A stretch of 11,411 nucleotides of DNA from a virus (Duplodnaviria; Heunggongvirae; Uroviricota; Caudoviricetes): the IMG/VR virus record IMGVR_UViG_2713896907_000009, positions 1 through 11,411 of that record, one strand, 5' to 3'. The position numbers were made by a program, and so were the translations under genes. A model generated the notes under the pieces. The model was not told the origin of the DNA and made no database searches. It worked only from the letters and a program-made list of their open reading frames with translations. Positions 1 through 11,411 of the stretch are shown one piece after another. Numbering within the stretch: the first letter of the stretch is position 1; the number at the start of each line of letters is the position of its first letter.

Positions 1-498
1 GATGTGAAAAGCGATACTGCGGATGTATTCAATTGCGTTTTCAATGGCCTCCGGCGTTATCGGCGCTGACATATTTTGATTTTGGTGTGCCAAGAGGCGG
101 CTGGCATCCTCAACACCTTTAACTGCATCTGCGCAGTAGTTATAGCGATTGCATTCCACTAACTTCTGCTTGAGATTTTCAATTGCTTGCGCGACATCAG
201 CCTGTATTACCGGAACAGGTGGAGCGGCGTACAAAGCAATCAAACTGCCAATTGTTCGCTCTTTCGCATCATCCAGACATGGATAGGCTGGGGTAGATAC
301 AATTGCATTATCTCTAAGGTCGTCAGCCATTACCCATGCCACAGGTTCTGCGCCATCAGCTTCTCGCCGCTTCTGTAGCTCTGCTGCCATCGCTCTCACG
401 ACTTCAACTGGTGCCCTTGCAGCAAACTCCATGTTGGTGATCAGCTCATTAAGATATTGCTCGCTGGGATACTGTTTCTTATTGGTAATGGTGGTCAT
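1..498 (-). CDS. Hypothetical phage protein, partial (ATG at 498-496; C-terminus runs past window start); paralog of the 943-1356 product
   Basis: Open minus-strand frame from ATG 498 to position 1 (my own translation begins MTTITNKKQYPSEQYLNEL...). Shares N-terminal MTTIT and the motif LYAAPPVPV with the 943-1356 product (EVYATPPVPV). Stop of upstream gene (TGA 502-500) sits 1 nt from this ATG. Confidence 0.5.
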   Translation of the reverse strand, partial: MTTITNKKQYPSEQYLNELITNMEFAARAPVEVVRAMAAELQKRREADGAEPVAWVMADDLRDNAIVSTPAYPCLDDAKERTIGSLIALYAAPPVPVIQADVAQAIENLKQKLVECNRYNYCADAVKGVEDASRLLAHQNQNMSAPITPEAIENAIEYIRSIAFHI

Positions 499-499
499 A

Positions 500-718
500 T
501 CAGCTTTCCTTGTACGGGTTAATTTTATTGTGCAGCTTCCTAAATGGACTCCATATCACATCGGTATATAACTCAATAACTGGTTCAACCATTTTTCCAA
601 TTACCCAGACCAGGATTAACGGGGATATCGGTATCAGCAACACGATAAACAGAATGAGAAACAAGAGTTCTATAGCTCTGCTTCTTCGCGGATATTCCTT
701 TCTGAACAATGTTGGCAC
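500..718 (-). CDS. Small single-pass membrane protein (72 aa), function unknown
   Basis: ORF-track frame 500-760; I place the start at in-frame GTG 718-716, which is preceded by AAGGAG at ideal spacing and sits 1 nt after the upstream stop (TGA 722-720). Product has a hydrophobic stretch LLFLILFIVLLIPISPLILVWVIG flanked by basic residues. The track's TTG start at 760 would overlap the upstream gene by 41 nt. Confidence 0.5.
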   Translation of the reverse strand: MPTLFRKEYPRRSRAIELLFLILFIVLLIPISPLILVWVIGKMVEPVIELYTDVIWSPFRKLHNKINPYKES

Positions 719-719
719 A

Positions 720-941
720 TCACTCTCCTTTGCTCGCTGCTTTCGCCTGCTCTTTAGCAAGTCGCTCCGCTTCTCTGAAATTCCAATCCACTCGATGTGC
801 TATATCAATTGCAGAACGCACTGTCCGTTCAATTAGCATGTCCAGATTATCAATTGTCATTGCCATATCTGGATTGCGAGATAAAATCTCCGCCCTCTGA
901 ATCTGCCAGTTGTTGCAGGTTTCAAGTAACGAGTTAGCCAT
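720..941 (-). CDS. Hypothetical protein (73 aa)
   Basis: ORF 720-941, ATG at 941 preceded by AAGGAAAG, start 1 nt after the stop of the 943-1356 gene. No motif recognised. Confidence 0.5.
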   Translation of the reverse strand: MANSLLETCNNWQIQRAEILSRNPDMAMTIDNLDMLIERTVRSAIDIAHRVDWNFREAERLAKEQAKAASKGE

Positions 942-942
942 A

Positions 943-1356
943 TCACTTTCCTTTTCCCTGAAGCATTGCGGCGCGGCAGGCGTTCCAGCCTCTCACCTCT
1001 GCAATAGCTGCAACAGCATCAACCGCGTACATGCTAAGAGGGTTAGGCATTGGTTTTTCTTCCGGTACTACTGGAACGGGTGGAGTGGCGTAGACCTCAA
1101 TAATTCCATTATCAATAGGCCATTCCCCATCCTTGATGTAGTCACTTGTGCCATCGACCTGCTGTTCTGCAATGTGGAAAGCACCTATTGGTTTTGCTTC
1201 CAGCGATGCCAGCGTAATTTCGGCCAGCTTGAGGTGAATAACCGCTGCATCAGAAGCGCCCGGGACTCTTTCCACCGCAACGCGAAGAACCTCAATATTC
1301 TTCTTAGCCTGCTCAATCAACTGCTCTTTGGTGAACTCTTTGGTAATAGTGGTCAT
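943..1356 (-). CDS. Hypothetical phage protein (137 aa); paralog of the partial 1-498 product
   Basis: ORF 943-1356 with ATG start; shares MTTIT N-terminus and YA(T/A)PPVPV motif with the 1-498 product. No family recognised. Confidence 0.55.
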   Translation of the reverse strand: MTTITKEFTKEQLIEQAKKNIEVLRVAVERVPGASDAAVIHLKLAEITLASLEAKPIGAFHIAEQQVDGTSDYIKDGEWPIDNGIIEVYATPPVPVVPEEKPMPNPLSMYAVDAVAAIAEVRGWNACRAAMLQGKGK

Positions 1357-1366
1357 TTGTTATGCC

Positions 1367-1564
1367 TCAATACACAAAATCTGTTTTAAATTCATGGTTA
1401 CATTCTGGACAGCATGTTTCGTAATCTTTTATTTCTTCACATGCCTGTTTTGCTCCAGAAAATTCCCAGAAATCAGCATCGCAAAGCAGATCGAAATTGT
1501 GGCCGCATTTGGGGCATTCGGTATCAAGTGACAGACTCCAGTAAGCAGGTGTGTTTTTGTCCAT
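1367..1564 (-). CDS. Small Zn-ribbon protein (65 aa), function unknown
   Basis: Internal ATG of ORF 1367-1645 at 1564-1562, preceded by AAAGGAGAG and 1 nt after the upstream stop. Product MDKNTPAYWSLSLDTECPKCGH...CCPECNHEF has two Cys pairs (CPxC ... CPEC) typical of a zinc ribbon. Confidence 0.5.
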   Translation of the reverse strand: MDKNTPAYWSLSLDTECPKCGHNFDLLCDADFWEFSGAKQACEEIKDYETCCPECNHEFKTDFVY

Positions 1565-1565
1565 C

Positions 1566-1727
1566 TCACTCTCCTTTGATGCGAATGCCAGCGGCGCGTG
1601 GCACATTAACTTCCACGATGCGCACAGTTGGTTTGTACATCTCAATTGCTGTCAGCCAGTCAGCTCCTGTCATGCGCTTTTCCGCATCGCCATTAGTCCA
1701 CTGAACCGGTACACCAATAGCCTTCAT
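1566..1727 (-). CDS. Possible small ORF (53 aa from internal ATG) or out-of-frame 3-prime continuation of the upstream Ea22-like gene; uncertain
   Basis: Frame 1566-1802 is open and ends in the same KGE-stop/SD junction motif seen at other real gene boundaries, which supports it as a coding frame. Its start is unclear: a GTG at 1802 would overlap the 1693-2214 gene by 110 nt; ATG 1727 has a weak SD. Confidence 0.25.
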   Translation of the reverse strand: MKAIGVPVQWTNGDAEKRMTGADWLTAIEMYKPTVRIVEVNVPRAAGIRIKGE

Positions 1728-2214
1728 CGCGATTTCTATTTCCCCCGGCAATGGCGCTTTTTCCGCAACCAGTAAAACCAGAAACAACGACAAGAACTTC
1801 ACCTTTGGCTGGTTTTATTTCCCGTGCTTCCAGTTCTGCAATACGCTTACTCCCATCCGAGATAACACCTTCGTAATACTCGCGTTGCTCGTTGAGTTTT
1901 GATTTTGCTTCCTCAAGCTCAACACGCAGCTTCCCTACCGTTAGCGCAATATCCTCGTTCTCCTGGTCGCGGCGTTTGATGTATTGCTGGTTTCTTTCCA
2001 GCTCATCCAGCAGCGCCCGAACTACATCAGCGGTTTTCTGGCACTGGTCAACAATGCTAACGTCACAACCAGTATCGAAACCGTCCTCAGTTTCAAAGCG
2101 GAGCTCTACAGAGTCGCCGTCGATATCAGATGGTTCGAACCCGGCAATGTTTTCCAGAATGCCGATTATGCTTTCTGCGCTATGACGTAATGCGCGTTTA
2201 TCGATGTTGCTCAT
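1693..2214 (-). CDS. Coiled-coil phage protein, ead/Ea22-like (173 aa)
   Basis: ORF 1693-2214; ATG 2214-2212 overlaps the stop of the 2211-2831 gene (ATGA). Central heptad-rich segment (LLDELERNQQYIKRRDQENEDIALTVGKLRVELEEAKSKLNEQ...RIAELEAR) resembles Ea22-like prophage proteins as I recall them. The C-terminus carries a Walker-A-like string VVVSGFTGCGKS only about 20 aa before the stop. Confidence 0.5.
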   Translation of the reverse strand: MSNIDKRALRHSAESIIGILENIAGFEPSDIDGDSVELRFETEDGFDTGCDVSIVDQCQKTADVVRALLDELERNQQYIKRRDQENEDIALTVGKLRVELEEAKSKLNEQREYYEGVISDGSKRIAELEAREIKPAKGEVLVVVSGFTGCGKSAIAGGNRNRDEGYWCTGSVD

Positions 2215-2831
2215 GACCGCACTCCTTTGCGAAGCTGGGAAGCAAAGTCAACTAACCACTCAGTCATTTCAACCTTCCCTACCAGGTCTGAACCAGGGTG
2301 CATACAGCAATCACTCTGCGCCGCTTTGAAATCCTTATACTCATATTCTTGGGCCACCAGATTTTTTGCAGCTTCTATAGCAGCATCCACGCCCTGCGCT
2401 CGTACTTCAGCCAGGAAAGCATCGGTGGCTGGGGTGTCTGATTGCAGAAACTTTGCGCGATAGTCATTCCACCCTCTTGCATACATGGGATTAACTTGCA
2501 CTCCATCTTTTACGCAATATGCCTGCCCTCCACGGTTGATAACCTTGATTTCGTCCATAGCGCCAGACTTCAGCCCAGCATTCTCCGCTGCCAGCGCCGA
2601 AAACTTCTCGTGTGCCAACTTAACAGCTGCATCAGCCTGCTTAATTGACTCAATCGCTTTCTGCTGGTCTTCGGCCAGCGCATTAGCACGCACCAGTTGC
2701 ACTTCCAGTTGCGTTGCCAAATCGCTGATCAGCTTTGCCACACTGCGCATATCAACGGCACCACATTCTGCTTTCAGTTCCGAAGCCATCTCATGCCCGG
2801 CGGCAACTAACCCTTTGATATTACTTTCCAT
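2211..2831 (-). CDS. Hypothetical phage protein (206 aa), Ala-rich, predicted helical N-terminal half
   Basis: ORF 2211-2831, ATG preceded by GAGGG; translationally coupled to the downstream gene. No family recognised. Confidence 0.55.
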   Translation of the reverse strand: MESNIKGLVAAGHEMASELKAECGAVDMRSVAKLISDLATQLEVQLVRANALAEDQQKAIESIKQADAAVKLAHEKFSALAAENAGLKSGAMDEIKVINRGGQAYCVKDGVQVNPMYARGWNDYRAKFLQSDTPATDAFLAEVRAQGVDAAIEAAKNLVAQEYEYKDFKAAQSDCCMHPGSDLVGKVEMTEWLVDFASQLRKGVRS

Positions 2832-2892
2832 CTTTACCCTCGCTTATCCACATAACTTATTGATTACATTGATAACTAAAAAGATCGTCGAT

Positions 2893-3237
2893 TCAGAACT
2901 CTTCGATGCTCCAGCCACCACCTGCTTTCTTTGGTTTAACCGTTACCCCGATGATTCGGAACGGATACTGATCTGCGGCGACTTTGGTTTTCACCCTGGC
3001 GTCGTCGGTCCAGAAACCTTTCACTTCGTGCAGTTCCATCTCGCCGGTGGCGAGCATCACAGCAAAATCGGGCGTATAGAACGTGTTGTCAGCTAACCGC
3101 AGCTTGATACCCTCAAATCGATACCAGACGATTTCTCCTGCACGTTTACGCAGCTCAAGGTGCTGGCAATACGCAGATTCTGTTTTGTTCATCTGGCCTG
3201 TTTTGAGTCGACCAAGAGCCTGTATCTGTTTTCTCAT
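2893..3237 (-). CDS. DUF1064-like phage protein (114 aa)
   Basis: ORF 2893-3237; pattern ...Y..LELRKRAGEI...YTPDF.V......ELHEVKG......ARVKTKVAADQYPF matches my recollection of the DUF1064 family found beside phage replication genes. SD GAGGT upstream of the ATG lies inside an operator-like palindrome. Confidence 0.6.
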   Translation of the reverse strand: MRKQIQALGRLKTGQMNKTESAYCQHLELRKRAGEIVWYRFEGIKLRLADNTFYTPDFAVMLATGEMELHEVKGFWTDDARVKTKVAADQYPFRIIGVTVKPKKAGGGWSIEEF

Positions 3238-3240
3238 GAT

Positions 3241-3317
3241 TTACCTCTGAGGTAATTAAAAACCACATAAGACATGAAATCAATAGAATTTAGAATATTT
3301 TATTACCCATCAGGTAA
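3241..3317 (-). promoter_or_regulatory. Leftward promoter flanked by two TTACC-N5-GGTAA palindromes (operator-like)
   Basis: Palindromes at 3241-3255 (TTACC TCTGA GGTAA) and 3303-3317 (TTACC CATCA GGTAA). On the minus strand: -35 TTGATT (plus 3283-3278), 17-bp spacer, -10 TTTAAT (plus 3260-3255). One palindrome is 18 nt upstream of the -35; the other abuts the -10 and includes the SD of the 2893-3237 gene. Confidence 0.45.
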
Positions 3318-3354
3318 TTATCGAGGCGTAAAAAAATGCGCTATCGCGCTGGTA

Positions 3355-4140
3355 TTACTTGATAAATCCTGCCGCCTTTCCCCGCCTGTATTCCTCCATC
3401 AGCCACTGCGCTGGTGTTATTCCCCCAAGGGTGGCGGCGTTAGGCATGCACCCGAAACTTCGCCCTGATGGATGGTAAACGTCTCTCCCTGTGTCCGGAG
3501 GTGTACTCATGGGCTCTGGCTTTGCCTGTATGCTGATCACCGGCTCGGGTATCTGCTGTCCGGAAGCCACCTTTTTCGCCCAATCATCGAGCAGCCTGCG
3601 CGCGTGTTTCTCAACCTCAATCTCGCTAAGCTGGCGCTGATACATTGCACGGCGGGTATCACATACGACCCAGTACATAACCGGATGCCGCCACGGGAAT
3701 CTTTCGGGACCACCAGGATATAAACTTTTTTCCTTGCTGTACCGGTGAAACTCCGCCATCACATCGTCAATGGTGACGCCAAGAACCATCTTGCTGTCTT
3801 TACACCACTTGATGAATTGCCCTGGCGACGGCCAGAACGGAGATTCACTGGCGCGGGCGTGGCGCATACCAGCAGAAACCTGTTCACGGGTTCGGATCCC
3901 CCCTTCGGCAAACGCAGCAATCCACTGCTGTTTTGCAGCAACTTCCTGCTCTGGCGTCTTCAGGTTGGTTACCACTGCCGCCGGAAACAGTTGTTTCAAC
4001 TGTTTGAAAAGGGCATCAACAAGCCTCTCTGCTGACATGTTCACCACGTTGTCATTGTTAGTGTACTGATGCTCATAACCTGACATGCGAGAAAGGGCTT
4101 CTCCGTCACGGTTTTGTATCGCGGTAAAAACGTTGTTCAC
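3355..4140 (-). CDS. Replication protein P-like (helicase loader, lambda P family)
   Basis: ORF 3355-4155; segments PFWPSPGQFIKWC, SLYPGGPERFPWRHPVMYWVV and QIPEPV match lambda P as I recall it (PFLPSPGQFVAWC, GLYPDAESYPWKSNAHYWLV, AIPEPV). Start placed at GTG 4140-4138 (GGGAGGA SD 6 nt upstream), overlapping the upstream stop as GTGA. Confidence 0.7.
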   Translation of the reverse strand: MNNVFTAIQNRDGEALSRMSGYEHQYTNNDNVVNMSAERLVDALFKQLKQLFPAAVVTNLKTPEQEVAAKQQWIAAFAEGGIRTREQVSAGMRHARASESPFWPSPGQFIKWCKDSKMVLGVTIDDVMAEFHRYSKEKSLYPGGPERFPWRHPVMYWVVCDTRRAMYQRQLSEIEVEKHARRLLDDWAKKVASGQQIPEPVISIQAKPEPMSTPPDTGRDVYHPSGRSFGCMPNAATLGGITPAQWLMEEYRRGKAAGFIK

Positions 4141-4976
4141 AAGAAATCCTCCCATGCTTCAGGGCTGTTCCAGTGCGGAACGTTGTTATCAGGTAATGTT
4201 GATTGCTTCTGTCTGCTAATCTGCAGCCGCCTTGCCAGCTTCTGCTCCCACTGTGCCTGATGGTATGCCTTACCCTCAGCCATCCAGTAAATTCTGAACT
4301 CTGCAAGTTCCTGTGCCGTTGGCAGACTGTCCAGGTAGATCCCCTGCAATGAGCTTTTCCGAAGAAAGTCATCTGATGGCTGCCATTGTTCATGCATGAC
4401 AAATTTGCCTAATTGCCCTGGCCCACCAGGAGGAACAAAGTTATTCATCACGGCGTTGTTTGCGCCGGGGTCATGAGGCACAGAATCCCCGGCTTTTGTC
4501 CTGCTCTCCCTCTCTTGGTTAAATGACTGGTTATATGACTGGTTCTGGATCCCGTTTTTGGGATCATTCAACATCCCGTTTTTGGGATCATTCAACATCC
4601 CGTTTTTGGGATCATTCAACATCCCGTTTTTGGGTATATTCCCGTTTTCGGGAACATTACCGTTTTCGGGTTCATTGCTCCATTCCCGGTTGCCTTTAAT
4701 GTTCCCGTTTTTGGTTATATTAAGAGAGAAAACCCGCACTCTTTTCGTCGCTCCCTTTCTCTCTCCGGTATCTGAAATAAGCCCCATTTTCATGAGCGAT
4801 ATAAGCCCGGCCTGTACGGTTTTTTTATTCAGGCAAGTGTCTTTAACGAGGCGTTCTATGCTGGGGTAGCAGAGGTTATATTCATCGGCTCTGTCAGCCA
4901 TCGAGAGCAGTATGAGCTTTAATGACGAGCTACCCGGATCTGTCTCCCAGGCCCAATCTGTTGCATGTCTGCTCAT
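4137..4976 (-). CDS. Replication initiator, O-like (N-terminal DNA-binding domain, Asn-rich repeat linker encoded by iterons, C-terminal domain)
   Basis: ORF 4137-4976, ATG 4976 with GGAG SD. Sits immediately upstream of and coupled to the P-like gene. Contains in-frame 8-aa repeats (PKNGMLND x3) encoded by 24-bp direct repeats, as lambda O contains ori. C-terminal region resembles DnaT/O-type replisome-organiser domains (from memory, unverified). Confidence 0.65.
   Translation of the reverse strand: MSRHATDWAWETDPGSSSLKLILLSMADRADEYNLCYPSIERLVKDTCLNKKTVQAGLISLMKMGLISDTGERKGATKRVRVFSLNITKNGNIKGNREWSNEPENGNVPENGNIPKNGMLNDPKNGMLNDPKNGMLNDPKNGIQNQSYNQSFNQERESRTKAGDSVPHDPGANNAVMNNFVPPGGPGQLGKFVMHEQWQPSDDFLRKSSLQGIYLDSLPTAQELAEFRIYWMAEGKAYHQAQWEQKLARRLQISRQKQSTLPDNNVPHWNSPEAWEDFL
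4547..4700. repeat. Iteron array: three perfect 24-bp direct repeats (4561-4632) flanked by degenerate copies; putative phage replication origin inside the O-like gene
   Basis: ggatcattcaacatcccgtttttg repeated exactly at 4561-4584, 4585-4608 and 4609-4632; partial or degenerate copies at 4547-4560 and 4633-4700. Each unit contains the inverted repeat GGGAT/ATCCC. Confidence 0.6.
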
Positions 4977-5026
4977 GATTAATCTCCGCTATCAGCTTGA
5001 ATGTTGTGGGGAGGAATTAATCATGA
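4973..5026. repeat. Inverted repeat (11-bp perfect arms, extendable to about 15 bp) bracketing the O-like start codon and SD
   Basis: tcatgattaat at 4973-4983 and its reverse complement attaatcatga at 5016-5026. The left arm contains the O-like ATG (4976-4974) and is adjacent to its GGAG SD. Confidence 0.5.
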
Positions 5027-5192
5027 TCTGCTTAATCTCTGCCCTGATGCGACGGTTTGATTCCATGGTGCACTCAACACAGTGTCCGTTGTAAACCCAG
5101 CGTTCACTGTCATGTCCGTGCTTACATGGTTTTCCGGTGTAGTAGCGTTTAAGTCCGCGCTTTGCGGCATCAATACGTGTAATGATTTCCAT
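4992..5192 (-). CDS. Small zinc-finger protein (66 aa), function unknown; occupies the position downstream of cro
   Basis: ORF 4992-5255; start assigned to internal ATG 5192 (MEIITRIDAAK...) because the N-terminal extension MIFFLCQHKITVIPILITGLT looks non-coding and runs into the intergenic terminator region. Product has C-x-H-x-H ... C-x2-C spacing (KPCKHGHDSERWVYNGHCVEC). Confidence 0.45.
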   Translation of the reverse strand: MEIITRIDAAKRGLKRYYTGKPCKHGHDSERWVYNGHCVECTMESNRRIRAEIKQIMINSSPQHSS

Positions 5193-5290
5193 GGTAAGCC
5201 CCGTTATTAGTATTGGGATTACGGTTATTTTGTGCTGACACAAAAAAAAGATCAACCAGATTTGGTTTTTTATTACCTTTGAGGTGCGAA

Positions 5291-5321
5291 TAGATATGAA
5301 AAGACCGCCGAGTGGCGGTCT
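5291..5321 (-). terminator. Putative intrinsic terminator downstream of the Cro-like gene (tR1-like position)
   Basis: Perfect 8-bp GC-rich stem agaccgcc / ggcggtct (5302-5309 and 5314-5321) with 4-nt loop; on the minus strand it is followed by TTTTCATATCT. The T-tract is short (4 T), so efficiency is uncertain. Confidence 0.4.
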
Positions 5322-5342
5322 ACAGAGGGTTGTGGCTGGATA

Positions 5343-5573
5343 TCATGAGTAGAAGAAGTATGCCAGTTCTGCTTTTGAGCGCAGCCATTGTCTTGTTTTA
5401 CAGGCTTTAAAAAGCCCATTCATCAATACCTTACCTGGCATTTTGCGCTTACCTGTTAAGTGAGTCTGGATATAGTGACTCGTCGTTCCGGCTTCCTGTG
5501 CGAAGGCTTCACGCTCATCTGGAGTAAGTGCAAGCCAGTGCTTTTTGAAATCGAAATGTCCGTTATCGCTCAT
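5343..5573 (-). CDS. Cro-like small HTH DNA-binding protein (76 aa)
   Basis: ORF 5343-5573, divergent from the repressor gene across an operator-containing region. Segment EAFAQEAGTTSHYIQTHLTGKRKMPGK resembles the HTH of Cro/YdaS-type proteins. SD is weak. Confidence 0.5.
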   Translation of the reverse strand: MSDNGHFDFKKHWLALTPDEREAFAQEAGTTSHYIQTHLTGKRKMPGKVLMNGLFKACKTRQWLRSKAELAYFFYS

Positions 5574-5608
5574 AGCTATTGCCTGATATTTATTTCAGAT
5601 AATAAATA

Positions 5609-5672
5609 TTCACCCATAAGGTAACAAAAATCAAGGATAGTTACCTATGGGGTGCATTTACCTGTTGGGTAA
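5609..5672. promoter_or_regulatory. Divergent promoter/operator region between the Cro-like and repressor genes with three operator-like sites
   Basis: Sites at 5609-5623 (TCACC CATAA GGTAA), 5641-5655 (TTACC TATGG GGTGC) and 5658-5672 (TTACC TGTTG GGTAA, perfect) in an AT-rich 154-bp intergenic region; -35-like TTGATT on the minus strand. I could not place the -10 elements confidently. Confidence 0.5.
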
Positions 5673-5727
5673 TATTGCTTTAAATTGAATCATCTACTGA
5701 TTCATATATGAGGCGATTTTCCAGAAA

Positions 5728-6312
5728 ATGAAAAGTATCCAGGACGTCCGCAGGCAAAATCTCAACGACTTGATCGACCGTGAATTCAATGGTGTTCAGA
5801 CGCGGATGGCAGAAAAACTTGGAACTCAGGCAAATCTGGTAAACCGCTGGGCTCTTGGCAAGAAGGTTATCGGCGACCAGGTTGCGCGAAAAATTGAAGC
5901 TGCCGCCAATAAACCCCGTAACTGGCTTGATATCGATCGCTCGCTTTCTCAGGAAGGTTTTCAGCCTGTCGGACCAAGCGACATTGGTCAGCTGGCGGCT
6001 CACAACCTGGAACGCTGGATGAGCGAAAGCCGCGACCTTTCAACGCAGGGAAAACTTCACCGCGCATCCGGCGTCGCCCAGGTGACAATCAGCCGCCTGT
6101 TAAACAATGAGGTCAGCGTTTCCATTTCCACCCTGGAGAATGTTGCATCAGCATTCGGGCGTCACGGATATGAACTACTGATTCACCCACACGACCCTGC
6201 GACTATCAACTATGACCGCTCGCGCTACGCTTTGTTACCCGAAACCGAGAAAGCAAAGATCGAAAGTTACATTGAATTTGTCATCAACCAGAACGAAAAA
6301 AACAAACAATAA
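5728..6312 (+). CDS. Phage repressor-like protein with two tandem XRE-type HTH domains and no S24 peptidase domain
   Basis: ORF 5728-6312. HTH 1 about aa 25-70 (VQTRMAEKLGTQANLVNRWALGKK...); HTH 2 about aa 105-150 (LHRASGVAQVTISRLLNNEVSVSISTLENVASAF). C-terminus has no Ser/Lys dyad or Ala-Gly cleavage context. Flanked on both sides by TTACC-N5-GGTAA sites. Confidence 0.65.
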   Translation: MKSIQDVRRQNLNDLIDREFNGVQTRMAEKLGTQANLVNRWALGKKVIGDQVARKIEAAANKPRNWLDIDRSLSQEGFQPVGPSDIGQLAAHNLERWMSESRDLSTQGKLHRASGVAQVTISRLLNNEVSVSISTLENVASAFGRHGYELLIHPHDPATINYDRSRYALLPETEKAKIESYIEFVINQNEKNKQ

Positions 6313-6332
6313 AATCATATTTTTCAGTAAGT

Positions 6333-6358
6333 AAGCCGCCTTCTGGCGGCTTTTTTAT
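6333..6358 (+). terminator. Rho-independent terminator downstream of the repressor gene
   Basis: Perfect 8-bp stem aagccgcc / ggcggctt (6333-6340 and 6345-6352), 4-nt loop ttct, followed by a T-tract (TTTTTTATT). Confidence 0.7.
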
Positions 6359-6368
6359 TGCCTATTTG

Positions 6369-6446
6369 ATTACCTATCGGGTAATTTTTTTAACTCATAT
6401 CTATTGACATCAAACCAAATACGCATAATCATTACCTAAACGGTAA
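6369..6446 (+). promoter_or_regulatory. Rightward early promoter (PL-like) flanked by two TTACC-N5-GGTAA operator-like palindromes
   Basis: Sites at 6369-6385 (ATTACC TATCG GGTAAT) and 6432-6446 (TTACC TAAAC GGTAA), plus a GGTAA half-site at 6456-6460 that overlaps the SD of the first gene. Consensus -35 TTGACA at 6404-6409; the best -10 candidate CATAAT (6424-6429) gives a short 14-bp spacer, so the exact -10 is uncertain. Confidence 0.5.
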
Positions 6447-6465
6447 CAAACCGAGGTAACAAGTT

Positions 6466-6618
6466 ATGCAGTGGAAAATCATCAACGGTTGGTACTGCGT
6501 TACTGCATGCGGATTCATGAGCTGGAAGTTCCGCACCTTACAGGAAGGTATTAAGTGGGCTTTCGTCAGCAAAGAAGCTCGCGATGTGGCCAACGATAAC
6601 GAGATATGGGAGGGCTGA
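6466..6618 (+). CDS. Small Trp-rich protein (50 aa), first gene of the rightward early operon; unknown function
   Basis: Not in the supplied ORF track (below its size cut-off). ATG 6466 preceded by GAGG at about 9 nt; my own translation is MQWKIINGWYCVTACGFMSWKFRTLQEGIKWAFVSKEARDVANDNEIWEG. Its stop is 2 nt before the next gene's ATG and its 3-prime end encodes that gene's SD (GGGAGGG). Confidence 0.4.
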   Translation: MQWKIINGWYCVTACGFMSWKFRTLQEGIKWAFVSKEARDVANDNEIWEG

Positions 6619-6620
6619 TA

Positions 6621-6920
6621 ATGAACGTTAATCAGCAGAAAAATCTTCAAAAAATCATGCTGGCATTCGACAAGGACTACCGCCTGTCAGAACAGCTATA
6701 TGACCGACAAGTTGAACTGATTGAGAGCATCCGACTTCATCAACTGTCCTCAACTTTCGACGTTGTAACAGGCAAAGGCGTTCGTCAGGAAGTGCTGGAG
6801 GCTGCTAAAGACAGCCCTGAGTTCGAAGAACTGATGGATGCCTACCGGCGCGAGGCAATGGCAATTATAGCGCGCTGGGATCTGGCGGATCAGCTTGATG
6901 GGCAGAGGGACGCGGCATGA
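6621..6920 (+). CDS. Hypothetical phage protein (99 aa) immediately upstream of exo/bet
   Basis: ORF-track frame 6606-6920; start placed at ATG 6621 (MNVNQQ...) with GGGAGGG SD at 6 nt. Stop overlaps the exonuclease ATG (ATGA). No family recognised. Confidence 0.6.
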   Translation: MNVNQQKNLQKIMLAFDKDYRLSEQLYDRQVELIESIRLHQLSSTFDVVTGKGVRQEVLEAAKDSPEFEELMDAYRREAMAIIARWDLADQLDGQRDAA

Positions 6921-7738
6921 AACCGGGAATTTATTTCGACATCAGCAACGAAGACTACCACGCAGGTGACGGCGTGAGTAAGTCGCAACTGGACATGGTT
7001 GCCAAGAATCCGGCGCTTCTTAAATGGGTTCAGGCAGCACCAGAAGACGAAGAGAAAAAGTCTGCACTGGATATGGGAACCGCATTGCACTGCCTGCTTC
7101 TGGAACCTGGAGAATTCGACAAACGCTTCATCGTTTCACCGAAATTCGATCGTCGGACAAAACAAGGTAAAGCTGACGAAGAAGCATTTCTTCGTGATGT
7201 GGCGGATATGGGTATTACGGTACTTGATGTCGAGCAGTGGCGAAAACTGGAGCTGATGCGTGATAGCGCAATGGCTCATCCGGCGGCACGCTGGATGTTG
7301 GAAGCACCTGGTTACTGCGAAGCATCAATGTACTGGAACGATGAAGAGACGGGTGAGTTGTGCCGAATTCGTCCAGACAAATGGCTGAACGAGCACAACG
7401 TGATCGTCGACGTGAAAAAGGTTGCAGATATGGACCGTTTTGCACGCCACATCGAGGAATTCCGCTACCACGTGCAGGACGCAATGTACCGCGAAGGCGC
7501 AATGAGGGTTACTGGTCAGCCGCATGGTTTTTTCTTTCTTGCCGTGAGCGAAAGCATTGATTGTGGTCGGTATCCGGTACGCGTGTTCGAGCTGGATGCG
7601 CCGGATGTCGATGCCGGGCACGCTCTGTTCCGCCGGGATCTGAATACCTATCACGAATGCCGCATCAACGATGAGTGGGGCGGAGTGGAAATTATTAAAC
7701 GCCCTGACTGGGCACGTAAACAGGATATGTACGTATGA
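6917..7738 (+). CDS. PD-(D/E)XK family exonuclease (phage recombination exonuclease, RecB-like nuclease fold)
   Basis: ORF 6917-7738. Motifs in order: IRPDKW (D), VIVDVKK (D-x-K), QDAMYREG (QxxxY), the arrangement of RecB/Cas4-type PD-(D/E)XK nucleases. Coupled (ATGA) to the downstream Bet-like gene. Confidence 0.7.
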   Translation: MKPGIYFDISNEDYHAGDGVSKSQLDMVAKNPALLKWVQAAPEDEEKKSALDMGTALHCLLLEPGEFDKRFIVSPKFDRRTKQGKADEEAFLRDVADMGITVLDVEQWRKLELMRDSAMAHPAARWMLEAPGYCEASMYWNDEETGELCRIRPDKWLNEHNVIVDVKKVADMDRFARHIEEFRYHVQDAMYREGAMRVTGQPHGFFFLAVSESIDCGRYPVRVFELDAPDVDAGHALFRRDLNTYHECRINDEWGGVEIIKRPDWARKQDMYV

Positions 7739-8616
7739 GCAATGATATCGCAATCACATCACAACCTGGCGCAACTGTAGGTACTGCTGCGGCAATCTTC
7801 AGCCCGGAGGGCATGAATCAACTGGTGCGTTTCGCGGAGTTGATGTCACAAAGCAAAGCGACTGTACCGAAACATCTTGAAGGCAAACCTGCCGATTGCC
7901 TGGCGGTGACCATGCAGGCGGCACAGTGGGGAATGAACCCGTTCGCCGTGGCGCAGAAAACGCATGTGGTAAACGGAACGTTAGGCTACGAAGCACAGTT
8001 GGTAAACGCGGTCGTATCCTCTTCCAGCCTGCTGGCGACACGCCTGAATTATCGCTGGAGCGGTGACTGGTCGAATGTTAACGGCAAAACAGATAAATCA
8101 CCGAATCTGACGGTAACTGTGTCAGCAGTTCTTAAAGGAGAAGCAGAACCACGTGAGCTTACCATCAGTATGGCGCAAGCCGGAGTGCGTAACTCTCCAT
8201 TGTGGGAACAGGATCCGCGCCAGCAGCTTGCCTATCTTTGCACGAAACGATGGGCTCGCCTGCACGCTCCTGATGTACTTCTCGGTGTTTACACCCCTGA
8301 AGAATTACAGGAAACGGCACCGCGCGTTGAGCGAGACATTACTCCGCAAACAACTACGGCTGCGGGAATGAATAGTCTGATCAACGCTAAAACAGTGAAA
8401 AAGCCTGATGAGCAAACGCGTAAAGCGGATAGCCGTGATCCAGAAGAAATGCTGATGGCCTTTACCAGCGCAGCAATGAATTACAGCACTGTCTCCGAAC
8501 TGGATAAGGCTTACAAATACATTGCACAAAAACTTTCAGATGATGACGAACTGCTGGCAAAAGCCACCGACGTTTACAGCGTTCGTCGGGAAGAATTAAA
8601 CGAAACATCTATGTAA
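7735..8616 (+). CDS. Single-strand annealing protein, Bet/RecT (Red-beta) family
   Basis: ORF 7735-8616. Segments GMNPFAVAQKTHVV, PLWEQDPRQQLAYLCTKRWARL and ERDITP parallel lambda Bet as I recall it (GLNPWTKEIYAF, PWQSHPKRMLRHKAMIQCARL, ERDITP). Sits directly downstream of a nuclease, as in exo/bet and recE/recT pairs. Confidence 0.75.
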   Translation: MSNDIAITSQPGATVGTAAAIFSPEGMNQLVRFAELMSQSKATVPKHLEGKPADCLAVTMQAAQWGMNPFAVAQKTHVVNGTLGYEAQLVNAVVSSSSLLATRLNYRWSGDWSNVNGKTDKSPNLTVTVSAVLKGEAEPRELTISMAQAGVRNSPLWEQDPRQQLAYLCTKRWARLHAPDVLLGVYTPEELQETAPRVERDITPQTTTAAGMNSLINAKTVKKPDEQTRKADSRDPEEMLMAFTSAAMNYSTVSELDKAYKYIAQKLSDDDELLAKATDVYSVRREELNETSM

Positions 8617-8665
8617 CCACCACCGCGGCGCCACGCGCGCCGCACTGCAACCAAGAGAGGTATTT

Positions 8666-8914
8666 ATGAAAGGTGCATTAGGTAAGAAGGAACTCCTGGC
8701 GGTGGTGCCACTGTCATGGAGCACTATCGACCGTATGGAGCGCGCAGGGGAATTTCCTAAACGCTGGTATATCACCGATAAACGCTGCGCATGGAACCGT
8801 GACGAAGTTGAGCGTTGGCTTGATGAACGTCAAGCAGCAAGCCCGGCAGAGTTCCAGGGTAAAAAACCTCCTGTTCAGCAACGTGTATATCGTCCCGTGA
8901 GCAACGCTGCATGA
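8666..8914 (+). CDS. AlpA/excisionase-like small HTH protein (82 aa)
   Basis: ORF 8666-8914, SD GAGAGG. Segment KKELLAVVPLSWSTIDRMERAGEFPKRWYI...WNRDEVERWL has the layout of AlpA/Xis-type winged-helix excisionases. Lies between the recombination genes and the integrase. Confidence 0.6.
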   Translation: MKGALGKKELLAVVPLSWSTIDRMERAGEFPKRWYITDKRCAWNRDEVERWLDERQAASPAEFQGKKPPVQQRVYRPVSNAA

Positions 8915-9023
8915 GTGCGCTGCTAAGGCACTGGAGCAAATGGTCAGGATGGTACTTATTCCTAGCCTCTGTTTCAGCATGGCTTTATCTGCTGGCATTA
9001 ATTTTCAGAGAGGGTTGGATTAA

Positions 9024-9323
9024 GTGAGAAAGTTAAGCCGACTTGAAAAATATCACATGAACAAGGTTTCAATGCGCAGCCCTTCAAAGGTTGTTGCCGT
9101 TACTCCTGCGGCGATAGAGATCGAAAAACGCGCGATTGAAAGAGAGAAAAAAGGGCAGTTCCGCATTGCCGCCCACCTTTGGCTTCAGTGTATGGATGTT
9201 GCTTCTGGTGATGTTGAGCGTGCAAGGATCGCGGTTCGCAGGAACCAATGTATCACAAAAGGTAACGGCCTTCGCCGTGGAGACTATAGCGGCATAGGAT
9301 GTTGTGGGGTGGTTTATGACTAA
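9024..9323 (+). CDS. Small regulator-like protein, PerC/ANR-like (tentative)
   Basis: ORF 9024-9323 with GTG start; alternative ATGs at 9059 and 9074. Segment AIEREKKGQFRIAAHLWLQC...ARIAVRRNQC resembles the conserved core of PerC/ANR-family small regulators as I recall it. Start codon not certain. Confidence 0.4.
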   Translation: MRKLSRLEKYHMNKVSMRSPSKVVAVTPAAIEIEKRAIEREKKGQFRIAAHLWLQCMDVASGDVERARIAVRRNQCITKGNGLRRGDYSGIGCCGVVYD

Positions 9324-9966
9324 GAAATACACACTAATCTATGCAGATCCACCCTGGGTATACCGGGACAAAGCCGCAGATGGTAATCGCGGTGCCAGTT
9401 TTAAATATCCGGTTATGAGTGTGCTGGATATCTGCCGCCTTCCTGTGTGGGATTTGGCCGATGAAAACTGTCTGTTGGCCATGTGGTGGGTGCCAACACA
9501 ACCACTCGAAGCACTAAAAGTTGTTGAAGCCTGGGGATTCCGTCTGATGACCATGAAGGGCTTCACGTGGATAAAATGTGGTAGTCGACAACCAGATAAA
9601 CTGGTTATGGGTATGGGTCACATGACTCGCGCCAATAGTGAAGATTGCCTGTTTGCAGTAAAGGGAAAACTACCTCCGCGCATTAATGCAGGGATCGTTC
9701 AGTCATTTACCGCACCGCGGCTTGAGCATTCAAGAAAACCAGATGTCGTTCGTGAAAAACTTGTGCAATTGTTAGGCGATGTTTCTCGCATTGAACTGTT
9801 CGCCCGCCAGACGTCTCATGGCTTCGATGTTTGGGGTAATCAGTGCGAAGACCCGGCAGTGCAACTACACCCTGGATACGCGTTGGATATTGGCGGATTA
9901 ACAAATGCATTCGGCAATGCTCCGCTGTCACCAACAGACAACCAGGGGCGGGAGCATGCAGCATGA
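9316..9966 (+). CDS. MT-A70 family N6-adenine DNA methyltransferase (orphan; no restriction partner in window)
   Basis: ORF-track frame 9304-9966; start placed at ATG 9316 (MTKKYTLIYADPPW...) with GGGGTGG SD. Contains the catalytic DPPW motif near the N-terminus, characteristic of MT-A70/Dam-like phage adenine methylases. Confidence 0.75.
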   Translation: MTKKYTLIYADPPWVYRDKAADGNRGASFKYPVMSVLDICRLPVWDLADENCLLAMWWVPTQPLEALKVVEAWGFRLMTMKGFTWIKCGSRQPDKLVMGMGHMTRANSEDCLFAVKGKLPPRINAGIVQSFTAPRLEHSRKPDVVREKLVQLLGDVSRIELFARQTSHGFDVWGNQCEDPAVQLHPGYALDIGGLTNAFGNAPLSPTDNQGREHAA

Positions 9967-10157
9967 ACAGGGCATCACCAGCAGATTTAAGGAAATACCT
10001 TGAAACTGCAAAAATGCTTGCACACAGCGGGATCAGGTTTGTTCCAATTCCCGCTGTCACTGATGCTGAATTTGCAACGCTGTCAGCAATATTCGCAGAC
10101 AAAATTGAATCACTGGCATCAGAAGCCGAGATGGAAGAAAATCAGCAGAATAATTAA
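9963..10157 (+). CDS. Small hypothetical protein (64 aa), translationally coupled to the methyltransferase
   Basis: Internal ATG of ORF 9843-10157 at 9963 overlaps the methyltransferase stop (ATGA); product MNRASPADLRKYLETAKMLAHSGIRF... has an acidic C-terminus. The longer ORF-track version would lie wholly inside the methyltransferase gene in another frame. Confidence 0.45.
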   Translation: MNRASPADLRKYLETAKMLAHSGIRFVPIPAVTDAEFATLSAIFADKIESLASEAEMEENQQNN

Positions 10158-10160
10158 ACG

Positions 10161-11411
10161 TTATTCCCCCGCCATCCACTTCTCAAACTTCGACGGGGAG
10201 AACGGAATCAGATCCGTATGCTCCCCGTTAATCCAGGAATCAATCATATCGGCCCACTGCTGCAACATGTAGGCGCGCTGTCTTGCGTATTCCGCTTTGT
10301 TATATACGGCGCGCACACCTTTCTGCTCATGTGCCAGAGCCTTTTCAATCCAGTCTGAAGGATAACCAGCCTCATGCAACAACGTACTTGCTGTACGGCG
10401 CATATCATGTACAGTGAAGTCCTGAATATGCTCACCATCTTCATTTATTATTTTCACCGTTCTGTCGATCAGAGAGTTCAGCGCGGCATTAGATAATGGC
10501 TTCCGGAAGTTGTAACGACCAGGAACCAGATATTCACTTCCACCAGCGCACATCTGCAACCCGACCAATATATCCTGTGCCTGTTTAGGCAGGTAAATAA
10601 CGTGCGCCCGGCTTCCCTTCATGCGGTCTGAAGGAATTGTCCATGTCCATTTTTTAAAATCTATTTCGTCCCACGTTGCATTAGTGAATTCGCCCTTACG
10701 AACCATAGTGATAAGCACCAGCTTTAAAGCCAGTTTCATAGTGCCCATAGCACCAATGGCATCCAGTGTGCGGAAGAACAGGCCAATTTCTTCTGGTGTC
10801 AGTGTTCGCTCTCGTGGTTTAAATATGGCGATAGACGAAGGTTTAATGTCAGCCGCAGGATTAAACAAACCATGACCACGGTCATTGGCGTGACGGTATA
10901 CGCTGCTGATGATCTCCCTGGCCTGTACTGCTGTTGCCCGACCACCGCGTTCGACAATCCGGTCACACAAATCACGAACCATCGATGTGGTAATTTCAGC
11001 CATCATTTTGTTGCCAAGAACCGGAAGTATGTCACGGTCGATCACCGCCAGCTTCATTGCGCGGGTACTGTCAGCCAGGATGACGTGTTTCATATAACTG
11101 TCGGTATGTACCGCAAACGTCTCGGCACCACGAATCTTTTTAATACCGTCACGTTTAGCCGCAGCCGGTGACTGGCCTGCTTTAAGCAGCTTCTTTGCAG
11201 CAATCAGTTCTTCCCGCGCTTCTGCCAGGCTGATACCGTCACGCCCATACTGCCCGATTACCAGTGTTTCGCGGCGACCGTTGATACGGTAGTCATAGCG
11301 AAACGAGACCGTACCTGACGTAAGCACAGCTACATACAGCCCGTCACGATCGGAAACTTTGTACAGTTTGTCCTGTGGCTTGAGGTTCTTTAATTTTGTA
11401 TCGGTAAGCAC
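10161..11411 (-). CDS. int: Tyrosine site-specific integrase (P4-type phage integrase family); N-terminus at or beyond the window edge
   Basis: 416-codon minus-strand frame reaching the last base of the window (apparent GTG at 11411, may be truncated). N-terminal LTDTKLKNLKP...DGLYV and C-terminal HDMRRTASTLL ... ALAH....VRAVYNKAEY (HxxR and catalytic Tyr region) match P4-like integrases. Confidence 0.85.
   Translation of the reverse strand: MLTDTKLKNLKPQDKLYKVSDRDGLYVAVLTSGTVSFRYDYRINGRRETLVIGQYGRDGISLAEAREELIAAKKLLKAGQSPAAAKRDGIKKIRGAETFAVHTDSYMKHVILADSTRAMKLAVIDRDILPVLGNKMMAEITTSMVRDLCDRIVERGGRATAVQAREIISSVYRHANDRGHGLFNPAADIKPSSIAIFKPRERTLTPEEIGLFFRTLDAIGAMGTMKLALKLVLITMVRKGEFTNATWDEIDFKKWTWTIPSDRMKGSRAHVIYLPKQAQDILVGLQMCAGGSEYLVPGRYNFRKPLSNAALNSLIDRTVKIINEDGEHIQDFTVHDMRRTASTLLHEAGYPSDWIEKALAHEQKGVRAVYNKAEYARQRAYMLQQWADMIDSWINGEHTDLIPFSPSKFEKWMAGE

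Follow-up and report, generated by a model that had tools for sequence, protein, structure and literature searches.

A repeated Shine-Dalgarno, stop and start linker between small phage genes, and its probable role as a boundary sequence for cassette exchange

Short conserved sequences at gene borders have been proposed as foci of recombination in phages, an idea attributed to Susskind and Botstein 1978 and to Clark et al. 2001 (PMC3029335). We analyzed an 11,411-nucleotide stretch of DNA from a Caudoviricetes virus (IMG/VR record IMGVR_UViG_2713896907_000009, positions 1 to 11,411; henceforth the window), in which four consecutive borders between small genes carry near-identical copies of a short sequence made of a Shine-Dalgarno (SD) ribosome-binding site, a stop codon and a start codon. 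We refer to this sequence as the linker and to the small genes that it joins as cassettes. We rate the linker as a clear and unusually abundant new example of the established boundary-sequence idea, and not as a new kind of element. Like the lambdoid boundary sequences, it is short and conserved at gene borders, it has non-homologous flanks, and homology breaks there. Clark et al. 2001, in the abstract of their HK620 study (J Mol Biol 311:657), reportedly listed seven sequences that roughly mark the borders of functional modules. Whereas those sequences are thus said to mark module borders, the window linker bounds one small gene at a time. It further differs from the lambdoid boundary sequences in serving as ribosome-binding site, stop and start, and in occurring in arrays of up to four copies. 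We found no open-access paper that describes this linker, and the seven sequences of Clark et al. 2001 were not compared with it; literature matches to the motif itself were unrelated primers and ribosome-binding sites, and the epsilon34 genome paper contained no relevant passage.

Kroger and Hobom are said to have described, in 1982, a chain of interlinked genes in the ninR region of lambda. Like that chain, the window array consists of same-strand small accessory genes with touching or overlapping stop and start codons, located after the replication gene P, and promoters and terminators are absent from its interior. In the nin chain, most genes are joined by ATGA-type overlaps that are specific to each gene pair, whereas the window reuses one identical 16-mer, with a one-base spacer, between unrelated genes. 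Integron cassettes resemble the array in being promoterless single-gene units on one strand, with a recurring short element and variable content and order. Unlike integrons, the window has no attC hairpin, as judged from folds of the junctions, and no IntI integrase, its sole integrase being of the P4 type. Exchange in the window would moreover be homologous and not site-specific, and the recurring element lies partly inside coding sequence. Morons are, like the cassettes, accessory genes of unknown function between conserved genes of temperate phages. They reportedly have their own promoter and terminator (Juhala et al. 2000), whereas the cassettes rely on read-through transcription and on the SD of the linker.

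The linker at four consecutive gene borders

All genes in window positions 1-5600 are encoded on the minus strand. In the order of transcription, the array comprises the following genes and junctions, including one junction that lacks the motif:

1566..2214, minus strand: Ead/Ea22-like gene (PF13935), whose tail holds junction J4
1577..1598, minus strand: extended tail of the linker, CGCGCCGCTGGCATTCGCATCA, encoding RAAGIRI and common to otherwise unrelated upstream genes
1562..1576, minus strand: junction J4, AAGGAGAGTGAGATG, from the Ea22-like gene (ending KGE) to the ATG of the zinc-finger gene
1367..1564, minus strand: cassette gene, 65 amino acids, cysteine-rich (zinc-finger-like)
1354..1372, minus strand: junction without the motif, TGAGGCATAACAAATG, then the shared gene head ATGACCACTATTACC
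943..1356, minus strand: cassette gene, 137 amino acids, beginning MTTITKE, phrog_5117
939..953, minus strand: junction J3, AAGGAAAGTGATATG, from gene 943-1356 (ending KGK) to gene 720-941
720..941, minus strand: cassette gene, 73 amino acids, phrog_10585, with the motif on both sides
716..730, minus strand: junction J2, AAGGAGAGTGATGTG, from gene 720-941 (ending KGE) to the DUF4014 gene (GTG start, 718)
500..718, minus strand: cassette gene, DUF4014 small membrane protein, 72 amino acids (PF13198, E = 8.5e-25)
496..511, minus strand: junction J1, AAGGAAAGCTGATATG, one base longer, from the DUF4014 gene (ending KES) to the next MTTIT-type gene
1..498, minus strand: cassette gene, beginning MTTITNKK, phrog_6847, cut by the window edge

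A single conserved intergenic linker, with the consensus A-AAGGAGAG-TGA-T-ATG, is present at all four junctions. In each copy, the SD lies within the final three codons of the upstream gene and is followed by TGA, one base, and ATG or GTG. The SD reads AAGGAG or AAGGAA and stands six or seven bases ahead of the start codon at the four junctions. The 15-mer AAGGARAGTGANRTG has three matches in the window, all on the minus (coding) strand (716-730, 939-953 and 1562-1576), and none in 200 dinucleotide-preserving shuffles. The longer variant AAGGAAAGCTGATATG has a single match (496-511) and is likewise absent from the shuffles.

A first-pass annotation of this DNA had reported a motif repeated at four boundaries and judged it unlikely by chance. 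The shuffles, which contain no copies, agree with that judgment, and the repeat is real on the coding strand, although the positions given for it span only the start, the spacer and the stop. The consensus proposed there, AAGGA(G/A)AG(T/C)TGA, fits the copy at 496-511 but is one base too long for the other three. The upstream C-termini do follow the predicted pattern of K, then G or E, then E, K or S before the stop: the genes end in KGE, KGK, KGE and KES.

The use of GTG at 718 as the true start is supported by the DUF4014 Pfam match, which spans residues 2-71 of 72, and by the ATG that relatives have there. The J1 variant is tied to the tail of the DUF4014 gene, which has 10 downstream partner families. 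Four copies is the maximum per locus, reached in 4 of 332 fetched loci, two of these from one near-identical contig.

All four junctions have the anatomy of coupled gene pairs, namely a tight stop and start on the same strand with the SD inside the upstream coding sequence. We assessed whether RNA structure or local transcription signals could contribute. Folds of 85 bases around the junctions were no stabler than those of shuffled sequence (z-scores -1.5 to +1.3), and the SD was unpaired in them; coupling by the unmasking of an SD hidden in RNA structure was rejected on these grounds. Promoter- and terminator-like sites in the array did not exceed those in shuffles, and none lay on the coding strand between cassettes, so a moron-like arrangement with internal promoters and terminators was rejected as well. 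The anatomy fits re-initiation by terminating ribosomes and not the unmasking of a hidden site: a terminating ribosome would be released beside a strong, unpaired start site (AAGGAG, with TGA one base before the start). With such an SD, stop and start in the linker, each promoterless cassette would be translated whatever gene precedes it. With no pairing predicted for the SD, independent initiation at the downstream genes may occur as well.

Reuse of the linker among related phages

We performed a motif-centred census of 233 related loci and the window, counting a copy as lying between two open reading frames (ORFs) when at least 40 codons were open on both sides. This resulted in 315 copies, 291 of them between two ORFs. 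At these copies, 36 families of upstream gene tails meet 36 families of downstream gene heads, and 95 different combinations occur. Genes on either side of the linker are unrelated to one another and include the DUF4014 membrane protein, cysteine-rich or zinc-finger-like proteins, Ea22-like proteins, an HNH-like protein and others. The reading frame is constant, with 32 of the 36 upstream families ending in KGE. The first 113 loci, which were fetched by gene homology only, contain 190 copies; these form 34 combinations, and every one of the copies is on the coding strand. A further sample of 80 loci was seeded by the DUF1064 gene, a seed that depends on neither the motif nor the small genes; it contains no copy on the opposite strand. 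Across the 190 loci obtained through gene homology, whose orientation follows the coding strand, the opposite strand holds no copy.

The linker also emerged from comparisons that did not start from it. When all 12-mers were ranked by the diversity of their contexts, without reference to the motif, AAAGGAGAGTGA was in the top three, with 14 left and 10 right families. We also compiled 200 distinct SD-bearing tight junctions in gene-seeded loci. ATGA overlaps (78), one-base spacers (37) and TGATG (27) dominate this set. The motif is present at 31 of the 200 junctions, which amounts to 31 of the 37 with a one-base spacer, and the most reused 16-mer is AAAGGAGAGTGATATG, with 16 combinations.

The 16-base core is the only DNA common to most families. 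A subset has longer shared tails of 15-41 bases, for example CGCGCCGCTGGCATTCGCATC, encoding RAAGIRI, and in many cases the tail shared between cassettes is 31-41 bases long. GIRIKGE is the C-terminus of about a dozen unrelated upstream families, seven of which have RAAGIRIKGE, and one more family ends in DADIRIKGE; the GIRIKGE ending is therefore not specific to Ea22-like proteins.

Homologues of gene 720-941 illustrate how the junction persists while its surroundings change. At 92-96% amino-acid identity, they keep AAAGGARAGTGATATG in front. Behind the gene, most of them keep a near-identical junction, AAAGGAGA(G/C)TGATATG, while in a few the overlap differs or the sequence is truncated. Their neighbours vary, with at least four kinds upstream and at least four downstream. 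Conservation of the junction in relatives, on which the idea of exchange at these borders depended, was thus observed around this gene and, in the census, across all loci. More distant homologues (63-84% identity, loci L023-L031) have other junctions, such as GGAGGCTGAGTGATGG, which flanks the gene on both sides. The same distant lineage also has GGGGGCCAAATGA at further junctions. That the distant homologues repeat a different junction argues for a sequence shared within a lineage and against one universal optimum, and suggests that junction sequences are specific to each lineage.

We compared window positions 1-3400 with the pooled loci using blastn. The 5' ends of matches fall at 1577, 954, 732/731 and 511, and the 3' ends at 1561-1565, 939, 716 and 496. 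Matches from the two sides overlap across the 16-17-base motif because the match on each side includes it. In the pooled sample, 65 of 218 5' ends and 56 of 227 3' ends lie at most 5 bases from a motif, about ninefold more than expected from motifs that make up 3% of the sequence, a value that is inflated by the choice of loci. Matches that cross a junction with at least 40 bases on each side number none at J4, six at J3, one at J2 and none at J1; hardly any relative thus retains the window's pair of genes around J4, J2 or J1.

Locus L009 contains the 720-941 cassette at 96.2% identity (window 954 to 716) and the zinc-finger cassette at 95.4% (window 1577 to 1337). The order in L009 is Ea22 tail, 720-941 and zinc-finger, versus Ea22 tail, zinc-finger, 943-1356, 720-941 and DUF4014 in the window. 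In L009, the overlap of each match with the next is precisely the motif, 16-17 bases. The linker therefore has the features of a boundary sequence, being conserved across phages, flanked by unrelated genes and coincident with breakpoints. Of the earlier proposals, that of conserved linkers for modular gene exchange is supported by the same junction with changing neighbours and by homology that breaks at the motif edges. Recombination breakpoints do coincide with the motif in comparative alignments, and breakpoints inside genes are also common.

A 37-mer comprising tail and core matches 375 GenBank phage records, including Stx phages, HK022, HK633, Salmonella P22-like phages, the P1-like P7, D6 and SJ46, and lambda. 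HK620 has the identical 37-mer at hkaG/hkaF, where the GenBank gene borders lie at the motif. In P7, upf88.3 is annotated as ending one base ahead of the start of upf89.0, also at the motif. In phiV10, the variant AAGGAGACTGATATG occurs where the annotated stop/start pair lies. The P1-like plasmid prophages P7 (AF503408.1 88982-89018), D6, SJ46 and CMS-2020a carry the exact 37-base linker together with Ead-like cassettes. The ea22 gene of lambda, from the ea22/Ead family (PF13935), ends in GGCATTCGCATCAAAGGAGAGTGA (J02459.1 29844-29874), which encodes AGIRIKGE before the stop and has the same tail and SD as J4. The lambda copy is a dead end: it reads TGAGATCGG, with GATCGG after the stop and no start codon, and looks like a linker without a downstream cassette.

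Temperate phages that infect E. coli, Shigella and Salmonella have in common a pool of small accessory genes (ea, ead/Ea22 and those in the nin position), throughout which the linker is used. The cassettes occupy the early-left operon in lambda- and P22-type phages, the position after gene P in the window element and phiV10, and an operon in P7. As a negative control, which says little on host range, we scanned 185,579 species genomes for a 19-mer and found it nearly absent outside enterobacteria, with 15 matches. Three of these are true gene junctions; the remaining ones are ordinary sites ahead of a gene without an upstream ORF, in unrelated bacteria.

Gene layout of the window and other reused sequences

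Besides the array, the window contains the following genes and one further junction:

5343-5573, minus strand: cro-like gene
4137-4976, minus strand: DnaT/helix-turn-helix replication gene, containing iteron-like repeats
3355-4155, minus strand: lambda-P homologue
2893-3237, minus strand: DUF1064 gene
2211-2831, minus strand: Ea22-type gene
2211..2237, minus strand: second reused junction, CAGCTTCGCAAAGGAG, seven bases, ATGA stop/start overlap (2211-2214)
6917-7738, plus strand: PDDEXK nuclease (PF12684/PF03837 cover the nuclease and RecT pair)
7735-8616, plus strand: RecT annealing protein (same pair)

This gene order places the small-gene array in the position of the lambda nin region, as in phage phiV10. 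Positions 6917-11411 additionally encode AlpA, an MT-A70 methyltransferase and the P4-type integrase (10161-11411, running off the edge), an arrangement that corresponds to the layout of phiV10/epsilon15-like prophages. Inside the replication gene, 4549-4676 holds tandem repeats of 24 bases in 3.6 copies (100% identity) and of 18 bases in 3.1 copies. They encode a repeated NDPKNGML and resemble origin iterons, as in the lambda O gene.

The Ea22-like gene that runs from 2214 to 1566 is broken by a one-base insertion at 1742-1746 (G5, not G4, on the minus strand), which turns an Ead/Ea22-like gene of 216-226 residues into ORFs 1693-2214 and 1566-1802. The gene is intact (G4) in other relatives, including a locus that is 99.9% identical across window 1-2599 (L001). 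Either a sequencing error or recent pseudogene formation would account for the frameshift. Within this gene, some 115 conserved bases (1903-2017) form the commonest island of homology with relatives: 35-48 matches begin at 2017 and 26-43 stop at 1903 or 1913. Ea22-type proteins are themselves mosaic, with variable N-terminal parts.

The linker is accompanied by other recurring sequences. At the second reused junction, many matches end at 2222, and the junction is found in HK620 at hkaH/hkaG; the related 16-mer AAGGAGGCAACCAGTG joins 10 upstream families to 4 downstream families. At the motif-free junction 1354-1372, matches to relatives stop at 1337, about 20 bases into the gene that follows. 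The genes with heads at 1342-1356 and 484-498 (minus strand) both open with ATGACCACYATTACC, encoding MTTIT, and in these MTTIT genes matches stop about 15-25 bases inside, at 1337, 483 and 472. Some downstream genes elsewhere carry the short head ATGACCACYATTACC too, and ACCACTATTACC is among the sequences with the most different contexts in the 12-mer ranking. The MTTIT head may be the downstream half of a linker.

Explanations for the recurring junction and its significance

From the sequence comparisons, we think it fairly probable that the junction is a conserved expression linker that doubles as a boundary sequence for the exchange of cassettes. We infer both that the linker itself is the place of recombination and that translation across it is coupled. 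Each cassette would have a copy of the linker as a direct repeat at either end, 16 bases long and in one reading frame. Recombination between two such copies could then add or remove a whole gene, substitute one gene for another or change the gene order, leaving no scar, and because the same in-frame linker stands at both ends, such exchange would preserve both the stop and the start that follows it. The exchange could plausibly be catalyzed by phage annealing proteins, for which the RecT and PDDEXK nuclease pair of the window would be a candidate in short-homology recombination, or by host RecA acting on the longer tails. Rad52-like phage recombinases work on short and diverged homologies (PMC3945230), and RecET can use 5-13 bp at low frequency (PMC2327257).

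Several observations weigh against this reading. Loci seeded by genes 720-941 and 500-718 necessarily give matches that end near the borders of those genes. In the least biased sample, that seeded by DUF1064, 7 of 106 5' ends and 17 of 164 3' ends are at most 5 bases from a motif versus 3.5% expected, a two- to threefold enrichment; within the small-gene region, nearly every match end of this sample is still at or beside a motif. The commonest breakpoints are inside Ea22-type genes (2017, 2674, 1913, 1903 and 2222), and the many breakpoints within genes mean that the linker is one type of joint among several. For efficient pairing, Red-beta requires at least 23-27 bp and RecA 31-34 bp (PMC3945230); the 16-base core is therefore marginal, falling below both, whereas tails of 31-41 bases are sufficient. 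At least 15 extra shared bases, with one mismatch allowed, are found in only 59 of 630 pairs of upstream families. Random recombination with subsequent selection for intact genes would also place breakpoints at gene ends, and selection for strong translation could by itself keep part of the sequence constant.

It is possible, and we suggest it tentatively, that the linker supports a wider system in which gene cassettes are exchanged across phage families, like an integron run on homologous recombination. Promoterless single-gene cassettes, each ending in an in-frame linker of SD, stop and start (a 16-base core with tails to about 40 bases), would be shuttled by RecT-, Red-beta- or Erf-type annealing proteins among lambdoid, P22-like, epsilon15-like and P1-like phages, and the linker would guarantee expression wherever a cassette lands. 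A survey of phage genomes found recent exchanges within the lambda-like group or within the P1-P2-Mu group and none between them (PMC3945230), which makes the presence of the linker in P7 and other P1-like phages of particular interest.

We consider it unlikely that pure functional convergence explains the junctions, each having independently reached the best signal for restarting after a stop, with no part played by recombination. Convergence would account for the near-perfect SD AAGGAG, unpaired in the predicted folds, for the tightness of all junctions in the array, where ATGA, TGATG and one-base spacers dominate, and for the equally tight junctions, with other sequences, of distant relatives. 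Yet positions that translation does not need are fixed, namely the A before AAGGAG, the AG after it, TGA and not TAA, and the T spacer, and the frame is constant in the 32 of 36 upstream families that end in KGE. Nor does convergence readily explain why the motif takes 31 of the 37 one-base-spacer junctions, or why many unrelated genes have a further 15-41 tail bases in common. Outside the pool of enterobacterial phages the exact sequence is essentially absent, other lineages have different repeated junctions, and matches from the two sides overlap precisely on the motif.

Random (illegitimate) recombination followed by selection seems rather improbable as a full account. In that case joints would form anywhere and those at gene ends would survive, the shared tail being a leftover of the displaced gene that still carries the start signal. 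The nested depths of the shared tails (KGE; IRIKGE; RAAGIRIKGE; AAAAGKGE; NHLRTKGE) look as if genes had been spliced at varying distances upstream, and many breakpoints are inside genes. Most mosaic borders lack conserved sequences (PMC3029335), and about 70% of mosaics have no flanking homology (PMC3945230). What random joints leave unexplained are the reordered cassettes of L009, with an intact linker on both sides, and the 95 combinations with the same frame and spacing and no scars; existing tails are, moreover, direct repeats that phage recombinases can use. Random joints may well explain how new genes first gain the linker.

A site-specific or nuclease-driven cassette system, integron-like or based on a homing endonuclease that recognizes the motif, is very improbable. 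One downstream cassette family is HNH endonuclease-like (MALTKKQRAELRMKFGGRCAYCGCELGEKWHADH...), and HNH endonuclease genes adjoin these genes in E. coli matches, but most arrays have no HNH gene. The junctions have no attC-like hairpin or inverted repeat and fold no more stably than shuffles, the sole integrase is the P4-type phage enzyme about 9 kb off, and phages whose integrases are unrelated carry the linker, as does the P7 plasmid prophage. Chance resemblance, or descent within one duplicated gene family, is hardly credible: SD-like sequences are common ahead of genes and two window genes that open with MTTIT look like paralogues, but shuffles predict no copies and the flanking genes (DUF4014, zinc-finger-like, Ea22-like, HNH-like and others) are unrelated.

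The boundary-sequence concept is established, and the genes involved here have no known function, which limits the reach of the finding. Within those limits, the motif identifies where genes truly begin and end in a region with many small genes that lack annotation. It also accounts for the C-terminal KGE or AGIRIKGE common to many unrelated accessory proteins; because this ending is imposed by a DNA signal, it is uninformative about shared protein function. Linker-based versus random-joint origins of phage mosaicism have been argued since 1978, and the case described here supplies a clean and abundant 16-base sequence among dozens of unrelated gene pairs, in which the linker hypothesis is directly testable by recoding the linker and measuring exchange.

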